From Escherichia phage ECML-10, in the sequence record OL631479.1: 64,000 bases of DNA, one strand, 5' to 3'. Positions 4,993-61,417 of this stretch are shown piece by piece (the stretch's first letter is position 1; every line of letters begins with the position of its first letter). Below the pieces are notes generated by a model, which did no database searches, had not been told where the DNA came from, and worked only from the letters and a program-made list of their open reading frames with translations. The position numbers and the translations under genes are program-made.

Positions 4993-5413
4993 TGCAAAAG
5001 CTTTTGGTGAGACAGCGGTACAAAGGGGGCAGGCGATGGGACTGGCACTACCTTTCGTATTAAAAGAGCACTTTACAGATTTTCAACTTATCAAGGGTGA
5101 TAAGGGAATGCTTATCCTGGAGCATAAGTTGAGTAAGAAACGCTATAAAGTTGTTTTTAATTCTAAAGCTCCAACAAAACTGGGATTCAGAACTTACAAT
5201 CTTAACCCATCCTACACTAAGGGTGTTGGAAGGGTAGAACAACAGCATTTCAGTGCCAGAGCTTCTTTAGCCCCTTTGATGCTAAATTTCTCAGGGGTGG
5301 CTTTAGGATACCTTGATAAGAAAAGAGTTCTTCATGTCCGTTTCACAGACTTTGTAACGCTTCTAGCCAACAACGAGGTTGATGAAAAGGGACGTGTAAA
5401 AACAAACTTCTAA
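4955..5413 (+). CDS. hypothetical protein
   Basis: 152 aa ORF, GGAGA-like RBS. Confidence 0.45.
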   Translation: MIKSIDLTKELTDAKAFGETAVQRGQAMGLALPFVLKEHFTDFQLIKGDKGMLILEHKLSKKRYKVVFNSKAPTKLGFRTYNLNPSYTKGVGRVEQQHFSARASLAPLMLNFSGVALGYLDKKRVLHVRFTDFVTLLANNEVDEKGRVKTNF

Positions 5414-15524: not shown

Positions 15525-16652
15525 GTGTCCAGAAAACTTACAACAGATGAGTTTATAAAGAGGGCAAAAGCAGTTCATGGAGATAAGTATGATTACTCTA
15601 AGGTTGAGTATGTAAATGCCTGCACCAAGGTTATAATTATCTGCCCATATCATGGAGAATTTGAACAAGCTACCCACCAACACCTTGCAGGACGAGGCTG
15701 CCGGGAATGTGGAAAGCTAAAAATGGCACAAAGCCACATTATACCACATAAGGAGTGGTTGAATGTTATCCAAGAGGTCAATCCTTATGTCGAAGTGATT
15801 GGAGAAATAATAAGCTGCAGAACAAAAGTGCCGTGCCGCTGCAAAATTTGCAGTCATGAATGGTCAGCAATGCCTTATCTTCTTAAACAAGGACATGGGT
15901 GCCCTAGATGCGGCAAGCTAAAATTCGCACAAAGCAGAGCTATAGCCCATACCGAGTGGGTCGAGGACATAACGAAGAAAAATACATATATTGAAATAGT
16001 AGAAAGGGTTAAAAATAGCGATACACCAGTATTGGCACGATGCAAAATTTGTAGTCATGAATGGTTAGCAAGACCATCCCATCTTAAACGAGGGCATGGG
16101 TGCCCTAGATGTAAAGGCAATGCAAAGAGATCCCATGTGGAATGGGTAGGGCATATAAAGGTTGTCAATCCAAGTATTAAAGTGCTTGGAAAAATTAAAA
16201 ACGGCAGTGCAAAAGTATTATGTAGGTGTAAGATTTGTGATTATGAATGGTCTCCTGCTCCTATTAGGCTCAAGCAAGGACATGGGTGCCCTAGATGTGC
16301 TAACTACGGCTTTTTATCGTACAATCACGGCAAACTTTACATTATGGTTGATGACTTAGAAGTACCAACACTTATGAAGATCGGTATTAGCGTCAGTGTC
16401 GAAGAGAGAAAAGATAGGATATTGAAAAGTGCCAAAAGGGCAGGGGTAGGTATTTATGATCTCTACCTGGCGAAAACGTGGGAAGGATCAACTCAAAACA
16501 TGGCAGATTTAGAAAAATCTGTGCATAAGGCCTTCAGCAAGTATAAAATAAACTTCCCTGTAAAATTTGATGGTAGCACAGAATTCTTCTACTACAGGCC
16601 TGAAGTGTTTGACACGGTGGAAGAAGTATACAGGAAGATTTGTGGTAAATGA
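15525..16652 (+). CDS. zinc-ribbon repeat protein with C-terminal T5orf172/GIY-YIG-like domain (putative freestanding homing endonuclease)
   Basis: GTG start; four repeats of C-x-I-C-x-H/Y-EW...GHGCPRC; C-terminus YIMVDD...KIGIS...TEFFY. Confidence 0.5.
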   Translation: MSRKLTTDEFIKRAKAVHGDKYDYSKVEYVNACTKVIIICPYHGEFEQATHQHLAGRGCRECGKLKMAQSHIIPHKEWLNVIQEVNPYVEVIGEIISCRTKVPCRCKICSHEWSAMPYLLKQGHGCPRCGKLKFAQSRAIAHTEWVEDITKKNTYIEIVERVKNSDTPVLARCKICSHEWLARPSHLKRGHGCPRCKGNAKRSHVEWVGHIKVVNPSIKVLGKIKNGSAKVLCRCKICDYEWSPAPIRLKQGHGCPRCANYGFLSYNHGKLYIMVDDLEVPTLMKIGISVSVEERKDRILKSAKRAGVGIYDLYLAKTWEGSTQNMADLEKSVHKAFSKYKINFPVKFDGSTEFFYYRPEVFDTVEEVYRKICGK

Positions 16653-35571: not shown

Positions 35572-35782
35572 AATGTTTTCCTCTCTTCTGGTTGTTGTGT
35601 GGGCACTTTTGCCCCTTCAAGATAAATGTTACCCCACCACCTGGCAGATGTCAACGGTTTTTATAGTTCTTATATGACAGGCAGGCCCGGTGATTGTCTC
35701 CCCCCGTCGCCAGGTGCCTGCCGTGTAATAAGTATAACAAAAAACAGGACCATTGCAAGCCCTGTTTTCTAGTTAATAAGGA

Positions 35783-37096: not shown

Positions 37097-37172
37097 GATT
37101 TTTATCCTCTTTGTGGTTGGTGGGGCTTGTTGCCCCCATTTGATTTATATATTACAGTCTTATATGGTCATG

Positions 37173-38279: not shown

Positions 38280-38324
38280 GTTTATCACTCCTTGTTAACT
38301 GCGTGTTATTTTTACCACGATTAA

Positions 38325-38376
38325 AATTTACTTTACTGATGGCCCTGGCGTCAAGGCCATCTAAAAATAAATTTAC
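38325..38376. repeat. conserved ~50-bp intergenic stem-loop element, copy 1
   Basis: TTTACTTTACTGATGGCCCTGGCGTCAAGGCCATCTAAAAATAAATTTAC; 7-bp stem GATGGCC/GGCCATC. Confidence 0.7.
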
Positions 38377-38573: not shown

Positions 38574-38830
38574 TTTGTTTCTCCTTTCTGGTTTTTGTGT
38601 TGGTGGGGATTAGCTCCCCGTTGATTATTATTATCCATATTTCGGACCGGATTGCAACACCCCGGAAGAAAAATTTTTTGAAAAAGTTAGGCCCCCAGGG
38701 ATCGGGGGCCGTTATCAGTTACTTACAGCGATAAAATACATCCCTACGCCTAACAATATTTCAAGGGCGATGATCTCAAGCCATACCATAACCCGGCGCA
38801 CCTTATCGGTGCGGGGCTTATCCTTGGTTG

Positions 38831-39870: not shown

Positions 39871-39960
39871 AATGTTTTCCTCTTTGTTTTGTGTGGGGCA
39901 AACGTCTTGCCCCCCTTGAGTTTTAATATAGCAAGTTTTTAGATTATTGCAACACTTTAT

Positions 39961-40137
39961 TTATGAAAAACTCATCTCTCCATATTCATCCACATCAAAC
40001 CGCCAATCATTGGCCTCAATAAGGCCGATCAGGTTTTCGGTAGTGAACTGTTCTAGATAGGCCTCCTCCAGGTCTACGTAAACCTTGCGGGATAGCTCCC
40101 GTACCGTCTCGGTGATCAGCTCTTCCAGGTCTTCCAC
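39961..40137 (-). CDS. hypothetical small acidic protein (58 aa, GTG start)
   Basis: first ORF downstream of the minus-strand promoter at 40185-40212; weak RBS. Confidence 0.3.
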   Translation of the reverse strand: MEDLEELITETVRELSRKVYVDLEEAYLEQFTTENLIGLIEANDWRFDVDEYGEMSFS

Positions 40138-40158
40138 TTTGTTTTCTTTGTTAGTGGC

Positions 40159-40212
40159 GGGAAGTTTTCCCGTTTACATGCTTAAGTATACTTATCGAGA
40201 TTTACTTGTCAA
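40159..40212 (-). promoter_or_regulatory. sigma70-like promoter with palindromic operator-like leader
   Basis: minus strand TTGACA-16 nt-TATACT followed by GTAAACGGGAAAACTTCCC (palindrome GGGAA-aac-TTCCC). Confidence 0.55.
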
Positions 40213-40462
40213 CACTATTTTTTAAATTATTGTGGCGCAAAATGTTTAAAATCTCTTCAACGTCATCAACACGGCGGCAATTTTTAAACGCTACCAATTG
40301 CCCCAAGATTTTGATCACTGGGCGGCCTTGCCAGTGCCCCTGGAGAAAGCGCGCTTTAACTTTATCGGTGGAACTATCACGCCACCAAACTGCTTTATTA
40401 TTGCAGTAGTAAAAATTATTCAGGACAACATCAACTTTATCAAAATTTTTTAATTTACGCAT
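40202..40462 (-). CDS. hypothetical protein
   Basis: GAAGGAAGGAG RBS; 86 aa. Confidence 0.5.
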   Translation of the reverse strand: MRKLKNFDKVDVVLNNFYYCNNKAVWWRDSSTDKVKARFLQGHWQGRPVIKILGQLVAFKNCRRVDDVEEILNILRHNNLKNSVDK

Positions 40463-40707
40463 GGCGTTTACTCCTTCCTTCTTGCTTTGATGTGGTTAGT
40501 ATATCCGGACTGTTCCAAGGTGTCAATCTTTAAATAAAATCACTGTTAATGATATTTTTAACACCATAAAACGGCCCTAGGTGATGTTTTCAGGTCAATA
40601 AAGGGGATTGCATAGGTAGGGGCTTTTGTGGCGTTTGTGGGGCCAACCAGGGGCGCTATTCGTAGGATAGAAATAAAAAGCCCCGCACAATGGCGGGGCG
40701 TTGGTTG

Positions 40708-40905
40708 CTATTTGTCTTTATGGCGGTACCGTTCCGCCTGTCGTTCACGTTCCAAAAGCAGGCCCGGCAGTTTACGATCATAATGATTCCGCCAGATCTT
40801 CCCAAATCTTTTTGGCTTATTTAGTTTATTGTTACGCTGGCGGCGTTCCGGCAGCTCTTCGGAATCATGAGATCGCTTTACAATCTTTTCAAAATTAATC
40901 TTCAT
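40708..40905 (-). CDS. small highly basic protein
   Basis: ATG after AAGGGGGG; Arg/Lys-rich (RRQRNNKLNKPKRFGKIWRNHYDRK). Confidence 0.45.
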   Translation of the reverse strand: MKINFEKIVKRSHDSEELPERRQRNNKLNKPKRFGKIWRNHYDRKLPGLLLERERQAERYRHKDK

Positions 40906-41243
40906 ATATTCCCCCCTTGCTAACTTCAATATTGGCCTGAATAGCCCGGATACGGCGCTTTATAACTTCCTGATCTGTGTGATCGTATCCCCAAAAGTCT
41001 ACAATTTTTGCGCCCCCCGCTTCCAGGCGGTACAGTGTTTCCTGCATTTTGTAAGCCGGGATCGGTCGCGGTGTTACTTGGTCACCTTCTTTATTTTTAT
41101 ACTTTATAATATAATCTTCATTATCGTTGAATGTCCAAAATGGATATTCTGCAAGGGCGGTACTTTCCTTTTTATCCTGGATCTTGTTTACAATTAAAGC
41201 CGTAGCAATAGCGCCAATAATAAAACTAGCCCCGCTGATCATG
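40895..41243 (-). CDS. membrane-anchored protein
   Basis: ATG after AAAGGAGAAAG; N-terminal TM helix ISGASFIIGAIATALIV. Confidence 0.5.
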
Positions 41244-41317
41244 TACTTTCTCCTTTCATTGTGTTGATAAACTATCTTTATAGATGGCCCTGCTACCAGG
41301 ACCACCGAAAAACCAGC

Positions 41318-41563
41318 TTATTTGACGATACCGACAAAACAGATCCCGCCTTCCCCTATATAGGCAATATCGGTAATTTGATAATTTGTCAAGATCCGCG
41401 TGTTCAGATCATTAATAAAATCGGTCATCGCGTTGGTGTAGTTGTCTTCCGTGTCTAAGGCATAATCCCAGGTGTAAACCTTTTTACGTCCGAAGCCTTT
41501 TACCATGATACGGGCGCTTTTGGTGTTGGTAGGGGCATAATATTTGGTGATTAGTGCTGCCAT
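41318..41563 (-). CDS. hypothetical protein
   Basis: ATAGGAG RBS; 81 aa. Confidence 0.45.
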   Translation of the reverse strand: MAALITKYYAPTNTKSARIMVKGFGRKKVYTWDYALDTEDNYTNAMTDFINDLNTRILTNYQITDIAYIGEGGICFVGIVK

Positions 41564-41604
41564 GGTTTTAACTCCTATGCATTAGTTCAGTGTTAACAGT
41601 ATAA

Positions 41605-41656
41605 CGTTTACTTTATTGATGGCCCTGGAGTCAAGGCCATCTAAAAATAAATTTAC
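41605..41656. repeat. conserved ~50-bp intergenic stem-loop element, copy 2
   Basis: TTTACTTTATTGATGGCCCTGGAGTCAAGGCCATCTAAAAATAAATTTAC. Confidence 0.7.
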
Positions 41657-41994
41657 TCGTTTTCTTCCAGTTCTGCAAGCTCTTCTTTCACTTCTTCAAG
41701 CTCTGTATGCAATTCCTGGTATTCTTCATCGTCCTCAATATCCAGGCTGTCGATGTAGTCGCTAAATCCGCAGCGGTAAGCGATAGGATCTAGCTCCTTG
41801 AGGATACGCGACGGAAGAAAAGAAATGTTTCCGATCATAATTTCGCCGTAGATCTCGTCTAACCATTCATCATAGTTTTCGTCGTACTTGTCCTCGTCGA
41901 TTTCAAAGTTATCGATCTTGTTCTCAAGGTCTGCGATCTGTTTTTTCAGCGCGGCGATCTGCATAGCTTTTTCTGCGGCGGTCATAGTAGTCAT
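41653..41994 (-). CDS. hypothetical acidic coiled-coil protein
   Basis: AAAGGAGAAAACACT RBS; 113 aa, Glu/Asp-rich. Confidence 0.5.
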   Translation of the reverse strand: MTTMTAAEKAMQIAALKKQIADLENKIDNFEIDEDKYDENYDEWLDEIYGEIMIGNISFLPSRILKELDPIAYRCGFSDYIDSLDIEDDEEYQELHTELEEVKEELAELEENE

Positions 41995-42019
41995 AGTGTT
42001 TTCTCCTTTTGTGTGCTCT

Positions 42020-42073
42020 GGGAAGTTTTCCCGTTTACGTGTTTAAGTATATCGATCTAAGTTAGTTTGTCAA
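42020..42073 (-). promoter_or_regulatory. sigma70-like promoter with palindromic operator-like leader (paralog of 40159-40212)
   Basis: minus strand TTGACA-16 nt-TATACT followed by GTAAACGGGAAAACTTCCC. Confidence 0.55.
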
Positions 42074-42193: not shown

Positions 42194-42225
42194 CTTAAAG
42201 CCCCCTTTTTCGCTTAGTTGAGATT

Positions 42226-42276
42226 AGTTTACTTTATTGAAGGCCCTGGAGTCAAGGCCATCTAAAAATAAACTTA
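42226..42276. repeat. conserved ~50-bp intergenic stem-loop element, copy 3
   Basis: TTTACTTTATTGAAGGCCCTGGAGTCAAGGCCATCTAAAAATAAACTTAG. Confidence 0.7.
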
Positions 42277-42678
42277 GTAAGTTTTCAGTACTTTACCGTC
42301 CAACCTGTCAAGCTGGATCTCGATAGCTGCAGAAAACCTATTGTAAACCACATCGCCCATAGAATCCAACCAGTCTATGACATTATACACTTGCTCTTTG
42401 TTCTTGCAGGTCCGGATCCGTTTCATGATGTAAGCCGGATCAATATTGGTACTCTCGTTGGTGTTCCCCTGTACCTGGTTTGCCGTATTAGTTACATCTT
42501 TAATGGCCTTTACCACCACCTGGAATGGCTTTAAGGTGCCTTTTGCGTTCATCTCACGCGCTTTTGCGGCGCGGTTGTTATATGTTACACAACGGCGGCA
42601 AATGTTGACCAAATGCATGTCAATAATTTTTTCATCGTTTGCCAGTTCGTTCATGATGCGGCGTACGTTCTTATTCAT
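42274..42678 (-). CDS. hypothetical protein
   Basis: CAGAGGAAAAGCT RBS; 134 aa. Confidence 0.5.
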   Translation of the reverse strand: MNKNVRRIMNELANDEKIIDMHLVNICRRCVTYNNRAAKAREMNAKGTLKPFQVVVKAIKDVTNTANQVQGNTNESTNIDPAYIMKRIRTCKNKEQVYNVIDWLDSMGDVVYNRFSAAIEIQLDRLDGKVLKTY

Positions 42679-42757
42679 AGCTTTTCCTCTGTGTTGGCGG
42701 GATGTTCCCCGCCTTTTGTGTCTAGTTTACTTAAATTTTGCAGCGTGTCAATGATTT

Positions 42758-43818: not shown

Positions 43819-43950
43819 TTGACAGCGGCCCCGCCAGGTGGCACAATATACCTATCGAAAGGACGGCAGGCACCGGTGACGGGGGAGACAACCACCGGGG
43901 ATGGGCGCTGCATAAAATGAGAACGGTTATCATTATCATTTAAAAATTTA
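43819..43950 (+). ncRNA. candidate small RNA unit 1 (promoter plus ~90-nt structured transcript)
   Basis: AT-rich UP-like tract, TTGACA-17 nt-CACAAT, then CCGGUG stem with loop containing GGGAGACAAC, ending GAGAACGGTTATCATTATCATTT; no ORF. Confidence 0.35.
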
Positions 43951-43961
43951 TGCAAAAAATC

Positions 43962-44075
43962 CTTGCTTTCTTTGTCCTGTGTGATACTATAATAACAAGC
44001 CGGGGCAACAGGGGCCGGGAGACAATCACCGGGCCTGCCCGTTATTCTGCAAACGAGAATGATTATCATTCAAAA
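43962..44075 (+). ncRNA. candidate small RNA unit 2 (paralog of unit 1)
   Basis: TATAAT at 43988, then GGGAGACAATCACCGGG and GAGAATGATTATCATT, homologous to unit 1. Confidence 0.35.
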
Positions 44076-44179
44076 TTCTAAATGAGAACTCCTCGCATTT
44101 AATAAATTTAATTAGCATGCTAATTACCCTCCGTAACAATTTCCTATAAAACAGTATCCCATAAAATATTCCCATATAG

Positions 44180-44640
44180 AAATTTTAAAAATCCATTTCT
44201 GAAAACGAAAAATCGATTTCGTCCCCAAAAATTTCAGGTCGAGATCCGGAACGATTTCCAGAAAATCCGATTCAGAAAACGAAAAACAGATCGAGTACTG
44301 AGAAATTTATCGAGAAAAATTTTCAGAAAATCCAAGCCATGAAATGAAAAGTAGATCGAGTACTTGGAAAGCTGCACCGCAACTTCAAGATAGTGGTTAG
44401 ATTGTTACCATAGAAGGTTAAGGGCAAGTGGAGGAAGTTCTAGTAGAGGGAGGTTAGCATGTGTGGGAAATCTATAATGGTGGCCTGGAATATGGTGCAA
44501 ACGATAGGATGAGTTATTCAGCTTGTCGCGCCTACTCTGAAAAATCCATTTTAGTTTTCGATCCATTTTCTGATTTTCTAAGAATTTTAAAATATCCAGC
44601 CCGGTGAAATATCAAAAGGAGGAAATCCATTTTAGAAATC
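44180..44640. repeat. iteron-like degenerate direct-repeat region
   Basis: repeated CAGAAAATCC(R)ATT, GAAAACGAAAAA and AGATCGAGTACT motifs in an AT-rich ORF-free stretch. Confidence 0.6.
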
Positions 44641-44675
44641 CCCCTTACACTTGATATGCCAGGAATTTTCAAGTA

Positions 44676-48152: not shown

Positions 48153-48214
48153 TTTTCAGATCTCCTTATACAAAAATGCCCCACCCTTTCGGGCAGGGCT
48201 ATGTTAGTTAGGTG

Positions 48215-59017: not shown

Positions 59018-59801
59018 TAATTCTGCTCCTTACTGCAGGCTCGTTTGCTAAGAATACGGCTTTTGCCCAGCCACGTGGTGTGAGGCTTCGGATCATCTTC
59101 GTTCTTGCACTCTTTCCACCCAGCTTAGCGTGTTGCATGGAGTACCCACTAACCGCGTCAACTATTTGCGGGACAGGTTTTGTGTCCGGGATTATAAATC
59201 CATTACCTATCCAGCCGCAAGTTATTTTTGGATAGGCATCACGTGGAGCTATAAATTCAGGAAACCAGGGGTTTACATCATCCTCCGGTAAATACCCGCC
59301 ATAGTCAGAAGGGTGAAAACGGTAATCAGGTTTGCGCCACAGTGTGGACATAACACCCACAGGATTCTCTACATGCCACGGGCAATCGTAAATCTCTCCT
59401 AGCTCTTCCGCAACCCGAGCATCCTTTACAGCATTAATTTGGATCAAAGGATCCTTAGCCAGCTTTTTCTTAAAATGTGCAGCACCTGATACCGCTAAAT
59501 GCGTGCACGGAGGAAATGCAAGAATAAAGTCTGGAGCTGGATACATGCAAAAAGTTTCCTGAGGGAACCATGGGTCAATCCAATAATCCACATAGTGAAT
59601 GTTAGGATGATCGGTTATCACCTCTGCATAACTGCCGTGGTCAGCACCTTCTGCATTAAAGCACAGGTACAGGTACCCAGCTTTTGCCCAGTCAATAACT
59701 GCACCACCAGACCCGTCAAATAGACTCCACACAACACCTTTGTGGTAGTGTTCTTTGTAGATGAATTTCAATTTGCTGTCTCCTAATGCAAAAAGCCCCA
59801 C
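59007..59801 (-). CDS. compact DNA (cytosine-5)-methyltransferase-like protein
   Basis: motif I WSLFDGSGG, motif IV FPPCTH (catalytic Cys), motif VI ENPVG; only 264 aa. Confidence 0.5.
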   Translation of the reverse strand: MGLFALGDSKLKFIYKEHYHKGVVWSLFDGSGGAVIDWAKAGYLYLCFNAEGADHGSYAEVITDHPNIHYVDYWIDPWFPQETFCMYPAPDFILAFPPCTHLAVSGAAHFKKKLAKDPLIQINAVKDARVAEELGEIYDCPWHVENPVGVMSTLWRKPDYRFHPSDYGGYLPEDDVNPWFPEFIAPRDAYPKITCGWIGNGFIIPDTKPVPQIVDAVSGYSMQHAKLGGKSARTKMIRSLTPRGWAKAVFLANEPAVRSRINGK

Positions 59802-59822
59802 CCTTTCGGGCAGGGCCTAGTG

Positions 59823-61015: not shown

Positions 61016-61075
61016 CGTTTAGTGCTTCCTTAGTTTTTGTGGGGAGGAGTGCCTCCCCTTTATACTTACATCTTA

Positions 61076-61417
61076 CTACTGGAGGTCTTCAGAGTCAAGC
61101 TCAAAAAGAATCAAACTGTGCATACCTGCAGAGAGATCAACACACCCTGCAACGATAAGGGTCTGATAGTAAGGTTCAGCACCCTCGATGTCTTCGTTAA
61201 AATCCACAACAAGATAGTCACCTTTGTTAAAGGTGTATTTGTCCGATGTAAACGCAAAACCTGCCCAGTCCCCTACTGCAGGATCTTTATCAGTCACCTT
61301 TGTTAGCAGTAGATCTTTTTCACGAGATCTTTTAGTAAAATCGTGAATCACAACATCCTTCTCTTCAGGAGTTGGATTGCCACACACGTAGTTAACGATA
61401 TTTCTCCACAAACTCAT
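61076..61417 (-). CDS. hypothetical protein
   Basis: 113 aa ORF overlapping helicase stop. Confidence 0.45.
   Translation of the reverse strand: MSLWRNIVNYVCGNPTPEEKDVVIHDFTKRSREKDLLLTKVTDKDPAVGDWAGFAFTSDKYTFNKGDYLVVDFNEDIEGAEPYYQTLIVAGCVDLSAGMHSLILFELDSEDLQ

Follow-up and report, generated by a model that had tools for sequence, protein, structure and literature searches.

Two promoter-leader modules in the early region of ECML-10

The DNA analyzed here, referred to as the window, is a stretch of 64,000 nucleotides (nt) from Escherichia phage ECML-10 (record OL631479.1), and all coordinates are those of the window. It is 94-95% identical to many Vequintavirus (rV5-like coliphage) genomes. 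Two similar modules, each consisting of a promoter and a leader with a short hairpin, were found on the minus strand within a leftward early block of small genes without assigned function. An earlier interpretation made from the letters of the DNA (the sequence-only reading) had proposed two minus-strand promoters of the layout TTGACA-16-TATACT, each heading one copy of a duplicated module. Both promoters are present, at 40185-40212 (copy 1) and 42046-42073 (copy 2), each with a 16-nt spacer, and the duplication was borne out. Both match the sigma70 consensus at 11 of 12 positions and have AT-rich sequence upstream of the -35 hexamer (AAAAAATAGTG and TTAAATTTTTAA). TTGACA-N15-18-TATACT occurs three times in the window while 0.02 occurrences are expected, and the third site, at 40498-40526, lacks the palindrome. 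The rV5 genome paper predicted 33 sigma70-type promoters, and its Table S4 includes P185, P186 and P192, which correspond to copy 1, the hairpin-less promoter at 40498-40526 and copy 2, respectively (Kropinski et al. 2013, PMC3606486).

The 32 nt spanning the -10 hexamer through the palindrome are identical between the two copies at 30 positions, and no such match is expected by chance. In a repeat search the modules appeared as a 54-nt direct repeat with 80% identity and a distance of 1861 nt. The near-identity of the leaders, which the sequence-only reading had pointed out, is real, and only its variable bases had to be corrected. The sequence after each promoter is TTAA(G/A)CA(T/C)GTAAACGGGAAAACTTCCC, with CATG versus CACG as the variable bases; it thus reads TTAA(G/A)CA(T/C)GTAAAC and not C(A/G)TG. 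The palindrome GGGAA-AAC-TTCCC was also present as described (40159-40171 and 42020-42032), and its exact 13-mer, GGGAAAACTTCCC, occurs only at these two places in the window. Its position, given before as the transcript start, is better described as near the start: the distance from the -10 hexamer to GGGAA is 13 nt in both copies, which places the palindrome at about +7 to +19 of the predicted transcript. In copy 2 the hairpin is GGGAA-AAC-TTCCC with 5 base pairs (42020-42032, minus strand), and the predicted fold is weak (-5.5 kcal/mol, z = -0.8). Copy 1 has the same register and a 6-bp stem, CGGGAA-AAC-TTCCCG (40158-40172, minus strand), and its leader folds slightly stronger (-12.1 kcal/mol, z = -2.2).

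Genes behind the two modules

Copy 2 precedes an intact gene at 41653-41994 on the minus strand, which encodes a 113-residue homologue of rV5 ORF192 (open reading frame 192; phrog_9294, function unknown). Relatives for comparison were taken from GenBank phage records, an IMG/VR search with the locus having given two relatives only, and the sample consisted of 17 genomes (the window and 16 relatives). In the relatives, copy 1 is followed by a good Shine-Dalgarno (SD) sequence and a 207-residue gene, the homologue of rV5 ORF185 (phrog_5162, function unknown). In the window, a deletion of about 457 bp between the short repeats CAAAGAAAA and CAAGAAAA has taken away the SD, the start codon and about 150 codons. 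What is left is a 3' remnant of 58 codons at 39961-40137 (minus strand), next to the deletion junction at about 40138-40146. For each of the 15 relatives listed in the GenBank phage search, the junction matched in two pieces separated by about 588 bp. Of the 118 records matching the junction query, 111 covered at least 80% of it; the deletion was shared by none among the matches listed. In this phage, copy 1 no longer drives an intact gene. The sequence-only reading had two early transcripts under control of the modules, and this applies to copy 2, which leads into an intact gene, and not to copy 1 in its present state. Homologues of ORF185 were also seen in jumbo coliphages and in Klebsiella phage K64-1.

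The cargo proteins and their neighbors matched no Pfam family and only PHROGs of unknown function, and no DNA-binding domain was detected in them. A search of the region 34-46 kb against Rfam at E <= 1 returned a single sub-threshold chance hit.

A hairpin family shared by three promoters

The search for additional copies that had been suggested for the palindrome was carried out. Besides the two exact 13-mers of the window, it returned exactly three GGGAA-N3-TTCCC sites in the rV5 genome (138 kb), where 0.13 are expected, and all three are located in the leaders of P185, P192 and P194, no more than 2.6 kb apart. In most relatives, copy 1 and P194 carry a longer stem of 8 bp, GGCGGGAA-N3-TTCCCGCC, exactly 10 nt after the -10 hexamer, and the hairpin of P194 is GGCGGGAA-TGT-TTCCCGCC. 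The predicted folding energy of these orthologous 8-bp stems is -14.6 kcal/mol (z about -3.9). Copy 2 retains only the inner 5 bp in the relatives compared, with its register unchanged. GGGAA-N3-TTCCC is the innermost part of a single stem family, GGCGGGAA-N3-TTCCCGCC, which serves P185, P192 and P194. Only two exact copies exist in the window because the stem of P194 has drifted here to GGCGGG-GAACAT-CCCGCC (42696-42713); the P194 homologue as a whole occupies 42696-42751 on the minus strand and consists of TTGACA-16-TAAACT, 10 nt and this hairpin. Throughout the family the stems are conserved and the loops are variable, namely AAC, GTT, CAA and CAC at P185 and TGT and ACA at P194.

Between close relatives, complete inversions of the 3-nt loop were observed. 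AAC is changed to GTT at P185 in phage A51.2 (L002, 4116-4128; window 40159-40171), and TGT is changed to ACA at P194 (L004, 1209-1221; compare window 42696-42713). A third flip affects the hairpin in the ORF184 leader of phage A142 (L014), where GGGGCAAGACGTTTGCCCC is replaced by GGGGCAAACGTCTTGCCCC (compare window 39895-39913). The flips look like minute hairpin-mediated inversions at short palindromes, and they would imply that hairpins or cruciforms form in the DNA during replication or recombination.

Three sites in one genome, close together and in the same register to the -10 hexamer, could be read as a mini-regulon, in which GGGAA-N3-TTCCC at about +7 to +19 is a DNA operator bound by a dimeric repressor of phage or host that shuts off P185, P192 and P194. 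The 5+5 core is indeed identical at the three promoters despite their unrelated promoter spacers, while the spacer between the half-sites, i.e., the loop, varies freely, and copy 2 keeps the core although its stem is too short for a strong hairpin. The center of the palindrome at about +13 is also similar to that of lacO1. The other early promoters of these phages speak against such an operator, as described below.

The same layout at other early promoters

Every strong sigma70-like site was listed together with its downstream sequence. At least 10 minus-strand early leaders of the window, located at 35-43 kb plus one at 61 kb, share one layout with differing stems: a sigma70 promoter is followed after 9-13 nt by a stem-loop rich in G/C, and then come an A/C-rich spacer (e.g., ACACAA or ACCAAC), an SD and an ATG. 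In addition to the P194 homologue, minus-strand leaders of this type were found for the ORF184 homologue (39895-39952; TTGCAA-16-TATATT, then GGGGCAAG-ACG-TTTGCCCC at 39895-39913), at 38605-38657 (TTGCAA-16-GATAAT, then GGGGA-GCTAA-TCCCC at 38605-38619), at the homologue of rV5 P174 (37122-37176; TTGACA-16-TAATAT, then GGGGC-AACAA-GCCCC at 37122-37136), at the homologue of rV5 P168 (35601-35654; TTGACA-17-TAACAT, then GGGCA-AAAG-TGCCC at 35601-35614) and at 61041-61098 (TTGACT-17-TAAGAT, then GGGGAGG-CACT-CCTCCCC at 61041-61058).

A count over the complete rV5 genome gave 11 hairpins in the sense orientation that lie no more than 24 nt downstream of a promoter, versus 1 in the antisense orientation. 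Leader hairpins were present in 13 of 57 promoter-plus-leader sites, taken from rV5 and one phi92-like locus, compared to 3.0 ± 1.7 in dinucleotide shuffles, and hairpins with at least four G:C pairs in 8 compared to 0.6 ± 0.8. The leader lengths are bimodal, with about 17-25 nt for leaders without and about 37-47 nt for leaders with a hairpin, a difference of about 20 nt. A set of 32 distinct hairpin-bearing leaders was assembled by hand from the window, the 16 relatives, phage KKE7M (Justusliebigvirus, another subfamily) and IMG/VR contigs. In this set the stem starts 10-12 nt after the -10 hexamer in 25 of 29 leaders, and the hairpin center lies 19.5 ± 1.8 nt after it. Across these related phages, 17 distinct 5' arms occur. 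The 10 nt following the stem consist of 58% A, 21% C and 8% T (A+C = 79%). Neighboring promoters of KKE7M carry the stems GGGCGGGAAA-TGG-TTTCCCGC (three times) or GGGCGGCA-ATAG-TGCCGCTC (twice), mostly 10 nt after the -10 hexamer. In IMG/VR, the 19-nt stem GGCGGGAA-N3-TTCCCGCC is followed by a T-run in a terminator-like manner at 73 of 116 sites, and a subset of the sites, on phi92-like and other contigs, shows a promoter, 9-12 nt, the hairpin and an A/C leader. The 19-nt stem is generic, and stem sequence alone does not define the element.

With three GGGAA-N3-TTCCC leaders in rV5 and at least 10 G/C hairpin leaders in the window, the idea of a control system with two sites does not hold. Since the hairpins at the same position of these leaders have different stems, a single sequence-specific operator is also disfavored. 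One repressor cannot explain the class, because unrelated stems (GGGGAGG, GGGGC, GGGCA, GGGGA, GGGGCAAG, GGCGGTGG and GGGCGGCA) occupy the place of the palindrome at other early promoters here and in KKE7M. Moreover, the variant GGTGGGAA...TTCCCGCC preserves the pairing in RNA and breaks the symmetry in DNA, the gene conversion described below accounts for the shared core, the small proteins nearby have no detected DNA-binding domain, and the same 19-nt hairpin is mostly a terminator stem in unrelated viral contigs. Taken together, we consider a repressor operator improbable. The sequence-only reading had left the choice between a shared operator of a dimeric repressor and an RNA hairpin, and the second half of it is the better supported one. 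In a broader form, the GCGGGAA-N3-TTCCCGC family of rV5-like and phi92-like phages could be a recognition element for a phage or host factor, either as a DNA operator or as an RNA binding or processing site. If so, the factor would coordinate the timing or the shut-off of some of the accessory early genes, but we regard this as quite unlikely.

Strand and level of action of the hairpins

The G-first polarity of the stem arms was tried as evidence for the sense strand and is void, since a palindrome of a G-run and a C-run reads identically on both strands. Because arm polarity is uninformative, strand information rests on the fixed spacing to a directional promoter and on wobble pairs. In the curated set of 32 leaders, G·U pairs in the sense strand versus A·C pairs amounted to 4 to 0, and with orthologue variants added by reading, to roughly 8 to 2. 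Sense-compatible variants are GGTGGGAA at P185, GGGGTGAG...CTTGCCTC at ORF184 and CTCCTC at ORF179 of ECP26, and the ORF184 stem of SYGMH1 carries paired CG insertions that are sense-compatible as well. RNAalifold on a MAFFT alignment of the 32 leaders gave no consensus structure, which is uninformative rather than negative because paralogues with different stems were not in register. In the same alignment, the pairs of the named structures were formed in 76% of the cells, a value that none of 500 shuffles reached (72% after shuffling), and sliding the structures gave 59% or less.

Another explanation, already proposed for the promoter-early stem-loops (PeSLs) of T4-type phages, is that the stem-loops are insulators or recombination modules, which mainly attenuate sense or antisense read-through between tightly packed cassettes and/or persist by promoting recombination, with little effect on their own mRNA. 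A stem-loop of the PeSL type from phages RB49/phi1 reduced downstream lacZ about as much as rrnB T1 (PMC2839356). In the window, several hairpins score as terminator-like on the plus strand, where the A-rich transcript start becomes an antisense T-tract, e.g., 42696-42713 followed by TTTTGTGT. The three hairpin flips and the conversion patches described below also show that the palindromes are recombinationally active. In the sense direction, however, the tails are A/C-rich (T 8%) without a U-tract, so intrinsic termination is unlikely; a minus-strand terminator scan called neither copy. The antisense T-tracts are inconsistent and, by reading, poor at P168 and at the KKE7M promoters, and the tight 10-12-nt spacing to the -10 hexamer together with the sense-biased G·U wobbles points to a role in the own transcript. 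An insulator or recombination module with little effect on its own mRNA is thus unlikely. A reading of the hairpins as antisense terminators was considered separately and rejected, the usable antisense T-tract being found in some members only.

A specific factor could also bind or cleave the leader hairpin in the RNA, e.g., an antiterminator of the lambda-N/boxB type, a translational repressor or a processing nuclease, and the function would then hinge on this factor rather than on general protection of the 5' end. Consistent with this, the hairpins are in leaders of early transcripts, like nut sites, and identical hairpins recur within genomes (GGCGGGAA-type three times in rV5, and in KKE7M the two stems given above, three times and twice). 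Recognition of the boxB type depends on the loop, whereas the loops here are hypervariable and even inverted (AAC/GTT, TGT/ACA). The stems differ among promoters, no boxA-like motif was seen on reading the two leaders, and Rfam gave no match. A protein-recognized RNA signal therefore seems very unlikely. A hairpin promoter of the N4 type was rejected too, the rV5 annotation containing no giant virion RNA polymerase and the central base of the loop not being conserved.

Gene conversion and cassette mobility

In most relatives the two copies have just the 14-nt core in common. The bases before the core of copy 1 are ACAGGC in 11 of the 17 genomes, and copy 1 with GTAAAC, the flank of copy 2, was found only in the window, ECP26 and V18. 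The short identities TATACTTAAACAC and GGGAAAACTTCCC delimit this patch, which shortened the stem of copy 1 from 8 to 6 bp. The reverse case was seen in SYGMH1, in which copy 2 has the promoter spacer of copy 1, AGTAAATCTCAATAAG. These patterns indicate that the modules convert one another, and that the two copies are nearly identical here because of such exchange. Their near-identity is a lineage-specific recombination product and reflects gene conversion, not conserved co-regulation.

A 55-nt hairpin element, D2, is found on either side of the copy-2 unit (ORF193, promoter, hairpin and ORF192), with one copy at 42223-42277 (upstream boundary) and one at 41602-41656 (downstream boundary), both on the minus strand. 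Phages phiWec189 and ECP26 lack ORF193, the copy-2 module and ORF192, and their junction is a single hybrid D2, with the left flank of the upstream copy and the right flank of the downstream copy. In KKE7M, the promoter, hairpin, ORF192 and D2 are present at about 95% identity, and the homology begins at the -35 hexamer and ends with the final base of D2. The downstream D2 is thus both the end of the KKE7M homology and a recombination partner in the loss from phiWec189 and ECP26. Whole cassettes are thus lost and acquired, and pass between phage subfamilies, at such repeated hairpin elements. An apparent replacement of ORF184 in ECP26 and phiWec189 was discarded, as it was merely a different annotated start.

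D2 has four copies in the window, read on the minus strand at 38322-38376, 41267-41321, 41602-41656 and 42223-42277. They are placed directly after stop codons and form a long interrupted helix with flanking U-rich/A-rich pairing and conserved G·U pairs. The predicted fold is -20 to -23 kcal/mol in the sense strand compared to -9 to -14 kcal/mol in the antisense strand, and the shape resembles intercistronic RNase III sites of the T7 type. In three of the four copies the loop contains TTGACT or TTGACG, with TAAACT, TAAACG or TAAATT 18 nt further on, a possible promoter. In V18 (L134), the D2 copies at 5233 and 4613, which flank the copy-2 cassette, share the private variants GCTTATTTT and TTGACACC, while the third D2 lacks them. 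This sharing indicates concerted evolution of adjacent repeats, judging from the variants.

Proposed role of the hairpin

The architecture, its enrichment, its spacing and its recombinational behavior were shown by the analysis. We lean slightly towards the explanation that both modules are paralogues of one modular regulatory cassette, which rV5-like and phi92-like phages have before many small early genes, and that the hairpin would work as a 5'-proximal stem-loop within the sense mRNA. The near-consensus sigma70 promoter of each cassette would be read by the host RNA polymerase. The G/C-rich stem-loop would start about 10 nt after the -10 hexamer, i.e., at about +3 to +7 of the transcript, and be followed by an unstructured A/C-rich spacer, the SD and a small accessory gene. 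The hairpin would form at the 5' end of the early mRNA and may limit decay that depends on this end (RppH/RNase E), and the A/C tract may keep the SD accessible, so that the ribosome-binding site is open and insulated. The hairpin would not act as a protein-specific DNA operator. In E. coli, mRNAs are stabilized by 5'-terminal stem-loops (Emory, Bouvet and Belasco 1992, cited in PMC3997798). The Srd protein of T4 stimulates the action of RNase E on mRNA of the host (PMC4980113), and rV5 gp11 is Srd-like; speculatively, a 5' stem-loop would suit a phage that encodes such a protein.

Several observations weigh against a 5'-proximal stem-loop acting in the mRNA. Promoter geometry, with a start 6-8 nt after the -10 hexamer, predicts 3-5 unpaired nt at the 5' end when the spacing is the modal 10 nt, and 5-7 in copies 1 and 2 of the window, and about 3-7 unpaired nt before the stem would be borderline for protection from RppH/RNase E. 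The stem of copy 2 is thermodynamically marginal and yet almost invariant among the sampled relatives, a hint that it could be recognized by its sequence. At P174, ev168 and LL12 have A·C pairs in the sense strand, which favors an antisense fold. Formal covariation is weak: on the alignment of 32 leaders it was not significant, with 66 of 500 shuffles reaching the observed score. A hairpin is lacking at many early promoters and is thus dispensable for promoter function. Finally, no transcription start sites, RNA-seq, transcript 5' ends, half-lives or reporter data for Vequintavirus were found in the searchable literature, and for this reason a role at the RNA level can only be inferred.

Other repeats and structured elements in the window

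A GC-rich structured element is present in three copies, at 35677-35722 (minus strand) and at about 43862-43910 and 43990-44050 (plus strand), which share GGGAGACAA(T/C)CACCGGG, and each copy closely follows a sigma70-like promoter. An inverted repeat of 29 nt with 93% identity, made up by two of the copies (35674-35702 and 44017-44045), brackets the 8.3-kb block of ORFan cassettes. The predicted folds have z about -2.5 in two of the three copies and z = -1.3 in the third, and no match was found in Rfam. They could be small RNAs.

At 44170-44370, three direct repeats of about 62 nt with a spacing of 65-74 nt are rich in GAAAA(T/C)C(C/G)ATTT-like motifs. They lie in a non-coding gap of about 720 nt (approximately 43956-44675) without a convincing ORF. 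The repeats look iteron-like and could mark a replication origin or another protein-binding array. At 48173-48199 and 59790-59816, two terminator hairpins (GCCCTGCCCGAAAGGGTGGGGC and then a T-run, minus strand) are 96% identical at a distance of 11.6 kb, and each directly precedes an SD and a gene, forming another repeated regulatory module. In the rightward gene block, three 134-nt direct repeats at 15777-16297 are 68-70% identical to the reference copy with a spacing of 186-201 nt, and probably represent a repeated protein domain or tandem small paralogous genes.

Comparison with known systems

The modules do not constitute a new kind of regulatory system, and their promoters are already annotated in rV5. 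P185, P192 and P194 of rV5 are the same promoters as those of the window, at orthologous positions with 92-95% identity. The rV5 paper gives only the -35 to -10 regions, and the leader hairpins, the class-wide spacing and the module exchange are absent from its searched text (PMC3606486).

The hairpins resemble lambda nut sites in that near-identical small hairpins are found in the leaders of separate early transcripts. They differ in having no boxA seen on reading the leaders, hypervariable 3-nt loops in place of a conserved pentaloop, and many stems, and no N-like protein was identified. The 5' stem-loop stabilizers of ompA and papA share a stable hairpin near the 5' end of the mRNA with an open ribosome-binding site downstream, and their proposed effect is to hinder attack of RppH/RNase E on the 5' end (Emory, Bouvet and Belasco 1992, cited in PMC3997798). 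The number of unpaired nt predicted here is at or beyond the limit reported for such protection (about 0-4).

The conversion between copies, the loss of a cassette and the cassette shared between subfamilies show that PeSL-style portable cassettes also organize the accessory early genes of rV5-like and phi92-like coliphages, which are widely isolated for therapy and biocontrol. The layout provides a simple rule for annotating early transcription units and cassette boundaries in these genomes. The natural variants, with stem lengths from 4 to 10 bp, inverted loops, and matched leaders that either have or lack a hairpin, could serve to test the function of 5'-proximal hairpins in early mRNAs of a phage that encodes an Srd-like protein.

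The closest known kind is the PeSL cassette described for the T4-type phages RB49/phi1, PST and nt-1 (Arbiol et al. 2010, PMC2839356; Comeau et al. 2014, PMC4122927). Some features differ. The lineage here is Vequintavirinae/Stephanstirmvirinae and not T4-like, so these phages fall outside the T4-type myoviruses by which PeSLs are defined, and the elements are not counted as one lineage with PeSLs. The stem-loop is inside the predicted transcript, at a near-constant 10-12 nt from the -10 hexamer and with an A/C-rich tract behind it, whereas in RB49/phi1 the stem-loops are most often between the -35 and -10 hexamers or overlap the latter. Terminator activity and mini-circles were shown for PeSLs; the Vequintavirus elements have all the features that define PeSLs at the sequence level, and a second repeat, D2, forms the downstream cassette boundary here. 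On the other hand, both have a near-consensus sigma70 early promoter with AT-rich sequence upstream and a positioned stem-loop with G's followed by C's, and one positional subclass of PeSLs has the stem-loop downstream of the -10 hexamer. Both also occur as many repeats within a plastic block of small ORFan genes, directly upstream of an SD and ATG, and both are linked to indels, replacements and exchange between close relatives, with recombination boundaries at the repeats. The elements were therefore filed as PeSL-like, in Vequintavirinae and Stephanstirmvirinae.

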